Below, in pieces: positions 13,463 through 15,036 of a DNA stretch of 23,773 nt (position 1 is its first letter; every line of letters begins with the position of its first letter). The notes under the pieces are model-generated. The model had not been told where the DNA came from. It worked only from the letters and a program-made list of their open reading frames with translations, and made no database searches. The position numbers were made by a program, and so were the translations under genes. The DNA comes from a virus. The stretch is from IMG/VR virus record IMGVR_UViG_3300004481_001118; one strand, written 5' to 3'.

Positions 13463-14189
13463 CATCGAAAAGGTACGCACTGCATGCAAGGCCGCGGCAC
13501 TCACGCTCGCCCGCTCGAGCAGGATCATAAAGCCAGGCATCACCACGAACGAAATCAACACGTTCGTCCATAATGACACGATCAGGCAGGGAGGTTACCC
13601 TGCACCCTTGAACTACAGGCGATTCCCAAAGAGCGTGTGCACGAGCGTGAACGATGTTGTCTGTCACGGCATCCCAGGAAACCTCGTGCTCAAGGACGGA
13701 GACATCATCAACGTGGATGTTACAACGATCGTCGACGGTCACTTTGGTGACACGAGTGCGACATTCATTGTCGGACAAACAAATGAAGACATCACACGAC
13801 TTGTTGAGGTCACACATCTTGCGTTGAATGCCGCGATCACGTGTTGCGGTCCAGGCATGTCAATGAGTGTGATCGGACGACGTATCCAAGAGATTGCAGA
13901 TGACTACGGTTACGGTGTTGTCAAGGAGCTCGGCGGACATGGGCTCGGCACGAGGTTCCACACACGCCCGTTTGTCGTGCACCATGATGTCAAGGATGTA
14001 AAGCAAGAACTGATGCAACCGGGTATGATCTTCACGATTGAACCGATGATTTGCATGCGTTCACCCGAGATCAAGGTCGATGCAGACGGTTGGACGATCA
14101 GAACGCTTGACGGTTCTTGGAGTGCACAATTTGAGGCGACCATACTAGTTACTGAAGATGGAACAGAAAACCTTACTAAAATCGACTAA
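13449..14189 (+). CDS. map: methionine aminopeptidase, type I
   Basis: Collinear with E. coli Map: SVNDVVCHGIP, DGDIINVDVT, GHFGDTSATFIVG, GHGLG..FH, FTIEPMI, SAQFEATILVT. Confidence 0.9.
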   Translation: MKDVDIEKVRTACKAAALTLARSSRIIKPGITTNEINTFVHNDTIRQGGYPAPLNYRRFPKSVCTSVNDVVCHGIPGNLVLKDGDIINVDVTTIVDGHFGDTSATFIVGQTNEDITRLVEVTHLALNAAITCCGPGMSMSVIGRRIQEIADDYGYGVVKELGGHGLGTRFHTRPFVVHHDVKDVKQELMQPGMIFTIEPMICMRSPEIKVDADGWTIRTLDGSWSAQFEATILVTEDGTENLTKID

Positions 14190-15036
14190 ACACTACCATG
14201 TATATGTGGATCGAACTTCTGAAGGTGTACCGTTCTATGTTGGTAAAGGATCAACTCGTCGTGTTCTAACACTCAGGCGTAACGGTAAGCATAAACATGT
14301 TGCGATAACACATGGAATCAATAGAATAATTGAATTTGAAACTTCAGATGAAAATCAGGCGTTTGAACAGGAACGTAGATTGATTGTGAATTACCACACC
14401 TTTGTGAATGACGACCTGGCAGGACCTTTTGCGTGTAATTTTACAATCGGTGGCGATGGCACGTCAGGATTCAAATGGAGTGATGAAGCAATTACTCGAG
14501 TGAGTCATCAACGAAAAGGTAAGAATAATCGTTTGGGATCAAAACACTCACAAGAAACGAAGATGAAACAACGTGAAAGCAAACTCGGTACGCGTAATCC
14601 AAGTTTTGGAAAACCAGCATGGAATAGTGGGAAACACGTTGGTTCTAATGCTGCTAAAAAAGGTTGGGAAAAACGACGAATAAACGGTAATACCTCATCA
14701 GGACCTAAAAGTGAAGAAACACGTCGAAAAATTAGTGAAGCTTTCAAAGGTCGTACGTTGAGTGAAGAAACACGACACAAGATTAGTAAAGCAAACACTG
14801 GACGAAAACATACTAAAGAATCGAAACAAAGGATTGCTAAGACTGGTATTGGTCGCATTGTTTCTGCTGAGACACGTCAGAAACTAAGTCAGGCTAACAA
14901 AGGGCGTATTCTTTCTGCTGAGACACGTCAGAAAATTAGTGAAACTCGCAAAGAAAAACATCATGCTTTACAAAAATATCACGATGTGTTGACGATGCTC
15001 AACGAATCGGAGTGGGTAGAGGCGACGAGTCCCTAA
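14158..15036 (+). CDS. GIY-YIG homing endonuclease with tandem NUMOD3 DNA-binding repeats (freestanding HEG)
   Basis: GIY-YIG core HYHVYVD...PFYVGKGS...R...E...N. At least six repeats of the ETRxKISxAxxGR type. The gene is clearly more AT-rich than its flanks. Its 5' end overlaps the map 3' end by 32 nt. Confidence 0.85.
   Translation: MEQKTLLKSTKHYHVYVDRTSEGVPFYVGKGSTRRVLTLRRNGKHKHVAITHGINRIIEFETSDENQAFEQERRLIVNYHTFVNDDLAGPFACNFTIGGDGTSGFKWSDEAITRVSHQRKGKNNRLGSKHSQETKMKQRESKLGTRNPSFGKPAWNSGKHVGSNAAKKGWEKRRINGNTSSGPKSEETRRKISEAFKGRTLSEETRHKISKANTGRKHTKESKQRIAKTGIGRIVSAETRQKLSQANKGRILSAETRQKISETRKEKHHALQKYHDVLTMLNESEWVEATSP

Follow-up and report, generated by a model that had tools for sequence, protein, structure and literature searches.

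A complete metagenome contig of 23,773 base pairs (IMG/VR virus record IMGVR_UViG_3300004481_001118, hereafter the window) carries on its plus strand, at 14158..15036, an open reading frame (ORF) that is most likely a freestanding ("Seg-like") GIY-YIG homing endonuclease gene, inserted in a large-phage genome between the convergent 3' ends of map, the methionine aminopeptidase gene, and of the next gene. The ORF, taken from the ORF list, starts with ATG and encodes 292 amino acids plus a stop codon. It matched PHROG 314 'homing endonuclease' at 7e-24, and a homologue search of 5.8 billion proteins returned 2250 homologues at E ≤ 1e-5 and a single occurrence of the exact 292-residue protein. 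The original prediction had described a freestanding selfish gene beside a conserved gene, more AT-rich than its flanks, starting 32 nucleotides inside the C-terminus of map and encoding a GIY-YIG core with six or more NUMOD3 repeats. Its coordinates were exact and all of these features were recovered here, the selfish character being supported by foreign composition, a start inside the end of map and a patchy distribution.

The GIY-YIG catalytic domain was assigned to residues 12-104 (14191..14469, plus strand) on the basis of hallmark residues, profile search and predicted structure. The hallmark codons on the plus strand are those of Y16 (14203-14205), Y27 (14236-14238), R35 (14260-14262), E72 (14371-14373) and N94 (14437-14439), in addition to G29. 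In an alignment of 34 homologues Y27, G29, R35, E72 and N94 were invariant and Y16 was at least 90% conserved. The GIY-YIG family PF01541 was matched by seven of these 34 homologues and PF22945 likewise by seven, and the matching members align in register with the window protein. Searching the Protein Data Bank (PDB) with a profile of the 34-homologue family revealed 9u75 at 1.8e-6 and UvrC at 0.007, both of them GIY-YIG proteins, and in the UvrC alignment the YIG motif, the arginine and the glutamate stood in register with those of the endonuclease. In the AlphaFold2 model the predicted local distance difference test score (pLDDT) was 89-98 across the GIY-YIG domain, and the predicted catalytic domain superposed on I-TevI at 2.1 Å. 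The model comprised a three-stranded beta-sheet with flanking helices, which is the beta-beta-alpha-alpha-beta-alpha core of the GIY-YIG fold. The alignment, the PDB profile search and the predicted structure demonstrated that the N-terminal domain of the endonuclease is a GIY-YIG domain despite the miss by the curated Pfam model that is weighed below.

Residues 105-266 (14470..14955, plus strand) form a NUMOD3 array, as judged by PF07460, predicted helices and a motif count. PF07460 matched five stretches of the protein with its 37-position model (E 5.3e-20, 71.5 bits versus a cut-off of 20.4). Counting by the S-x-E-x-x-x-[KR] motif and the helices of the model gave seven clear units and one degenerate helix; the predicted helices span residues 109-120, 132-143, 163-176, 186-196, 203-213, 220-230, 237-247 and 254 onward. 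The array is basic (24% K+R) and is presumed to be the DNA-binding region. A 51-nucleotide tandem duplication identified by Tandem Repeats Finder (14857..14953, plus strand; 1.9 copies, 82% matches) spans the last two NUMOD3 units, a repeat suggesting that the DNA-binding array lengthens through duplication of its own units.

The protein contains one cysteine and hence no zinc finger, and Pfam gave no helix-turn-helix, NUMOD1 or IENR1 match in it. The proposed likeness to I-TevI was therefore borne out for the GIY-YIG core and the NUMOD3 helices and not for the remaining modules, and the protein stands closer to the Seg proteins of T4. With I-TevI and I-BmoI it shares the NUMOD3-type minor-groove helices, and the DNA-binding domain of I-TevI (1i3j) was a weak profile match at E 0.1. 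In contrast to these enzymes the window protein is not intron-encoded and has many more NUMOD3 units; the I-TevI-type architecture of a zinc-finger linker and a C-terminal helix-turn-helix encoded within a group I intron was not found.

The T4 Seg proteins (SegA-SegG) likewise consist of a GIY-YIG domain at the N-terminus followed by a DNA-binding region at the C-terminus. Their genes also lie between conserved phage genes rather than in an intron and are patchily distributed among relatives, and segC (20 bp) and segF (11 bp) overlap the upstream gene without an obvious translation initiation region (PMC2988022). Phage records among the tblastn matches to the window protein were labelled 'Seg-like homing endonuclease'. 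However, annotated phage homologues reach only about 30% identity to the window protein, which differs from the Seg proteins in its uncultivated large-phage setting, in the map neighbourhood of its predicted target and in the long run of seven to eight NUMOD3 helices, its activity being predicted from sequence.

A second group of similar proteins comprises the LEM-3-like GIY-YIG family (PF22945), PD-T4-3 and UvrC, which share the 'FYVGKG...R...E...N' core; 9u75 and UvrC were the best PDB profile matches. This likeness ends with the nuclease core of about 90 amino acids, beyond which C-terminal modules, genomic context and biology differ. The notion that the gene encodes a non-mobile GIY-YIG nuclease, either of a defence or restriction kind like PD-T4-3 or degrading host DNA like T4 endonuclease II, has in its disfavour that the resemblance to 9u75 does not extend beyond the GIY-YIG core, that NUMOD3 arrays are typical of homing endonucleases and that a mobile element would leave just such a patchy distribution, bound to one site and with an empty allele. 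The only PADLOC matches were weak ones to 'homing endonuclease' models, none being to a defence system, on which ground a defence-system identity was rejected. We regard a non-mobile nuclease as highly improbable.

The upstream neighbour map (13449..14189, plus strand) encodes a type I methionine aminopeptidase of 246 amino acids (Peptidase_M24 5.4e-47; TIGR00500, 272 bits versus a cut-off of 171). Direct reading of the sequence showed that the start of the endonuclease gene overlaps the end of map by 32 nucleotides (14158..14189, plus strand), that is, by the last ten codons and the stop codon of map, and that the endonuclease ATG is embedded in the map codons GAA-GAT-GGA (E-D-G). The next in-frame ATG, GTG or TTG is the GTG at 14206, use of which would delete the first beta-strand, and none of the alternative starts avoiding the overlap retains this strand. 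Since no start other than the ATG at 14158 leaves the domain whole, the overlap with map is real. At the other end, the last 12 codons and the stop codon of the endonuclease gene are antisense to the 3' end of a convergent gene, as read from the ORF coordinates (38 nucleotides tail to tail, 14999..15036), an overlap that the original prediction had not mentioned; the pLDDT drops at this C-terminus. The convergent gene (14999..15310, minus strand) encodes a conserved protein of 103 amino acids and of unknown function, with homologues at 52-55% identity in the relatives L161, L163 and L164 and at 40-44% in L002 and L005, and without a match in Pfam, PHROG or NCBIfam. The endonuclease ORF thus occupies precisely the space left by two convergent 3' ends, both of its termini being read from coding sequence of its neighbours. 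As map is of full length with a normal end, the endonuclease gene sits between genes and not within an intron or intein. An Rfam scan of the whole window gave no intron and no other RNA family, and an intron-encoded endonuclease was ruled out. No paralogues of the gene were found elsewhere in the window.

The composition of the gene is foreign to its surroundings. The guanine-plus-cytosine (GC) content was 0.404 in the endonuclease gene versus 0.518 in the rest of the contig, and the lowest-GC segment of 809 nucleotides in the contig coincides with the gene (z = -3.3 versus windows outside it). At third codon positions (GC3) the value was 0.28 for the endonuclease, whereas map stood at 0.59, the convergent gene at 0.62 and eight other genes at 0.55-0.74. 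The GC content at second codon positions is normal, so the gap at third positions is not an amino-acid effect. The composition profile and windows of 60 nucleotides delimited a compositionally foreign tract of about 0.40 GC at 14121..14998, with a drop at about 14120-14140 and recovery at about 14990; within the 14999..15036 overlap the 60-nucleotide windows were back at 0.55-0.63. The same difference was seen in the two contigs described below that carry the nearest homologues, with a GC3 of 0.44 for the endonuclease versus 0.77 and 0.81 for the flanking genes in L113, and of 0.32 versus 0.49 and 0.61 in L114.

The slot downstream of map was then compared among relatives. Megablast of window positions 13000-16500 against 50,697 phage records gave no match, and hence no close cultured relative. 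Scanning metagenomes with map returned relatives at no more than 54% identity, mostly cellular-looking, none of which had the endonuclease gene. Large phage contigs (215-392 kb) yielded map homologues at 50-64% identity. The slot that separates map from the convergent gene holds the endonuclease gene in the window and is empty in L161 (map 64% identical to that of the window), where map and the homologue of the convergent gene overlap tail to tail by 11 nucleotides. An allele lacking the endonuclease had been suggested as something to look for in relatives, and L161, which has nine genes in common order with the window and is the closest syntenic relative found, provides it. In L164 (map 62% identical) the slot holds an ORF of 75 amino acids and in L163 (map 62% identical) two unrelated genes. 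The L162 contig stops just past map, which leaves its slot unreadable; a different site on this contig, 1.7 kb upstream of map, harbours an endonuclease of 31% identity. No endonuclease gene adjoins map in L001-L005 or in L033.

The two genes in the L163 slot (3523-5030) encode a protein of 285 amino acids with a match to Pfam 'Gad2' (PF26128) and, on the other strand, one of 218 amino acids. The gene following the endonuclease in L114 (902-1414) appeared, by eye from the translations, similar to an L163 slot gene; no such similarity above 60 bits was reported by tblastx. From neighbouring accession runs and this similar downstream gene L114 and L163 were considered as a pair of occupied and empty alleles, which was rejected, their map genes being only about 53% identical. 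In L005 the map gene (6001-6867) has a cysteine-rich C-terminal extension of about 42 amino acids (CHVC...CKQC), possibly a zinc ribbon, that is absent from other phage map genes.

Among the 5.8 billion proteins the nearest homologues of the endonuclease were P0002 (66% identical) and P0003 (58% identical), whose genes each follow map directly, with overlaps of 23 and 32 nucleotides, respectively, at the map end. Three diverged contigs (the window, L113 and L114) thus carry an endonuclease gene at one insertion site after map, while none of 46 more distant IMG/VR homologues adjoins map and some distant homologues are located in Mu-like morphogenesis regions. L114 and the window are alike in the 32-nucleotide overlap and in the start context GAAGATGGA; the start context of the L113 endonuclease, 'GACGATGAG', equals the start of a different downstream gene in L001. 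In the map tree the window clustered with L161-L164, all of them without the endonuclease gene at this site (86% bootstrap), and L113 clustered with L001 and L005, both also lacking it (100% bootstrap). Presence of the gene is therefore patchy and discordant with the map tree, a pattern expected from sequence comparison of a site-specific mobile gene, although an old resident lost many times could also fit. The map tail '...TEDG.E.LT[KR]ID*' is common to the window and L114. A co-conversion signal in this tail was rejected as too short for significance, the window matching L114 in 12 of 16 residues and L161 in 11 of 16.

Further GIY-YIG genes and distant homologues were noted in the course of this survey. 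L002 has a classical GIY-YIG endonuclease (11709-12572; MSHIYKILN...YVGQS) just upstream of its phosphatase gene. GIY-YIG/NUMOD3 endonucleases lie in L156 (3001-3381) just downstream of a 58%-identical phosphatase gene, and in L162 (1718-2347) between homologues of the window ORFs 12263 and 12781. Three of the better full-length homologues, at 31-33% identity and 75-78% coverage (P0006, P0037 and P0060), are encoded on a 1-Mb contig, are annotated as belonging to a dinoflagellate, Prorocentrum cordatum, and carry NUMOD3 and phage tail-fibre-repeat matches; they could reflect contamination or a viral insertion in the assembly.

Several observations weigh against the reading of the gene as a site-specific homing endonuclease. 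The first concern the domain assignment. Pfam matches to both PF01541 and PF07460 had been anticipated, and the window endonuclease gave the latter and no PF01541 match at E ≤ 0.1, the domain being identified by profile and structure instead; TIGR01453 (group I intron endonuclease) reached 23.8 bits, under its cut-off of 56. The missing PF01541 match would suit the relic of a homing endonuclease, catalytically dead and decaying towards loss, as would the 12 C-terminal codons that are antisense to the neighbouring gene and the truncation of the nearest homologues to 170 and 207 amino acids. However, the ORF is uninterrupted across its 292 codons, Y16, Y27, G29, R35, E72 and N94 are all retained, and the prediction for the catalytic domain is a high-confidence one that superposes on I-TevI as described above. 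Moreover, most close homologues carry PF07460 alone, and the whole sub-family misses PF01541 yet keeps the motifs, which indicates that the miss reflects the reach of the model and not decay. A dead relic is accordingly very unlikely.

The remaining points concern mobility. The C-terminal regions vary among the copies at the same site, with eight helices in the window, about three in L113 and about three plus a CCHC knuckle in L114; such differing DNA-binding regions would be odd if one target were common to all three. In P0003 (L114 227-850) the CCHC zinc knuckle (CKNCKQAGHFARAC) takes the place of the further NUMOD3 units of the window protein, and zf-CCHC was matched at 1e-4 in one member of the homologue alignment. 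All relatives are distant (map no more than 64% identical), and the searches yielded no pair of alleles whose flanks were near-identical. Finally, endonuclease identity among the three contigs (58-66%) is near that of map (55-60%), so that an old association followed by several losses fits nearly as well as repeated invasion. The recent mobility asserted in the original prediction was thus not upheld, the nearest homologues being 66% and 58% identical, with no near-identical endonuclease copy among the 5.8 billion proteins and with the endonuclease diverging about as much as map.

These data bear on the possibility that the gene is an old, vertically inherited resident that has been repeatedly lost and is kept or domesticated as a nuclease benefiting the phage, by excluding competing phages or processing DNA, and no longer homes. 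Co-divergence with map is what such a history predicts; the absence of near-identical copies elsewhere and the intact ORF and catalytic residues after an implied long residence point the same way, and phage homing endonucleases can act in competition between co-infecting phages, as described in PMC11620839. On the other hand, the gene would have to have been lost independently at least five times in two map clades that are both well supported, the composition is still far from that of the host genome in all three contigs, and between the window and L113 the endonuclease is more conserved than map (66% versus 57%). We therefore consider a domesticated resident unlikely, while noting that it is not truly exclusive of homing, as homing and exclusion of competitors are one biochemical act.

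The region around the endonuclease start was inspected for expression signals. A scan limited to sigma-70-type promoters gave none within about 140 nucleotides of the start, and the nearest match of this type lies inside the ORF (14300-14327, 9/12). No Shine-Dalgarno sequence of its own and no terminator-like site were detected, and the RNA around the start showed no structure, being less folded than shuffled sequences (z = +1.7). A sigma-70-type promoter of its own, a terminator and a start-hiding hairpin were accordingly rejected. Of the 12 freestanding endonuclease ORFs of T4, five share 1-24 nucleotides with the ORF upstream and have no recognisable translation initiation region (PMC2988022). 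The window gene, lacking a sigma-70-type promoter near its start, a terminator-like site and a hairpin and overlapping map, matches these cases. The re-initiation window of T4 is about seven codons (PMC2988022), and the 32-nucleotide overlap is longer, a further point that counts against a homing gene of this kind.

If the gene is nevertheless a Seg-like homing endonuclease, as we favour, it would be co-transcribed with map and probably translated at a low level from the ATG inside the last codons of map, 32 nucleotides before the map stop. The string of basic NUMOD3 helices would bind DNA, and the single-active-site GIY-YIG domain would cut the genome of a co-infecting related phage lacking the gene, putatively at or near the end of map. 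Recombinational repair would then copy the endonuclease gene together with flanking markers into the cut genome, that is, intronless homing or marker exclusion. In a bolder form of this scenario, which we offer tentatively and hold to be somewhat doubtful, a GIY-YIG/NUMOD3 lineage would have specialised on the 3' end of phage map genes and invaded this one site on two or more occasions, in distinct clades of uncultivated, very large phages. Every start codon would be embedded in the last codons of map (GAA-GAT-GGA in the window and L114) instead of relying on its own signals, the enzyme would serve as a marker-exclusion weapon between co-infecting large phages, and the map tail common to the window and L114 would be a small co-conversion tract.

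Other genes of the window were recorded as well. An ORF of 888 amino acids at 6530-9196 (plus strand) matches domains of the eukaryotic major vault protein (MVP_shoulder at 8e-30, the Vault repeat at 1e-7, Vault_3 at 2e-7, and Band_7). It has full-length homologues at 39-41% identity in huge phages, uncultured and with sizes of 462 and 735 kb (LR756500, LR756501, LR756503), and no match in NCBIfam. At 15844-16287 (plus strand) an ORF of 147 amino acids matches with its last 40 residues (MPMVRRVHATKIAQSLVTVQPM...FYMDYTYG) positions 8-48 of the Gp23 major capsid model of Pfam at 4.7e-12. This C-terminal stretch also matches the same short stretch of annotated capsid genes, and the ORF is far too short for a capsid protein; its homologues (L001 7826-8428, L005 8954-9562) keep the motif. 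Its N-terminus, YVFAPYVPL, recalls the C-terminal motif of T4 gp23. A '...VLWS..P' motif read from the translations is common to many small ORFs around map (MILWSVVPSDDY, DVLWSVLPDDYSW, SVLWSRAPKF, ITVLWSVEPTNPF), including those at 11983-12270 and 15844-16287 of the window and others downstream of map in L001, L002 and L005. These ORFs look like members of a paralogous family that has expanded and is arranged differently from one relative to the next. A NinI-like serine/threonine phosphatase gene at 16659-17456 (plus strand; Metallophos 1.6e-16, PHROG 246 7.7e-38) is 58-62% identical in relatives and useful as a synteny anchor, and a Cpn60/GroEL-type chaperonin gene lies at 21804-23441 (minus strand; PF00118 1.2e-69).

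The endonuclease gene adds a new and rather divergent member to a well-known class of selfish genes and as such has little import beyond annotation, neither raising a new question nor resolving an old one. The vault-protein-like gene, which is conserved among very large phages, may merit separate attention. With its long NUMOD3 array the endonuclease is, judging from its sequence, a candidate rare-cutting enzyme. For the group of very large uncultivated phages studied here, the findings mark the slot downstream of map as a recombination-prone, variable site and indicate that homing endonucleases shape very large phage genomes as they do in T4.
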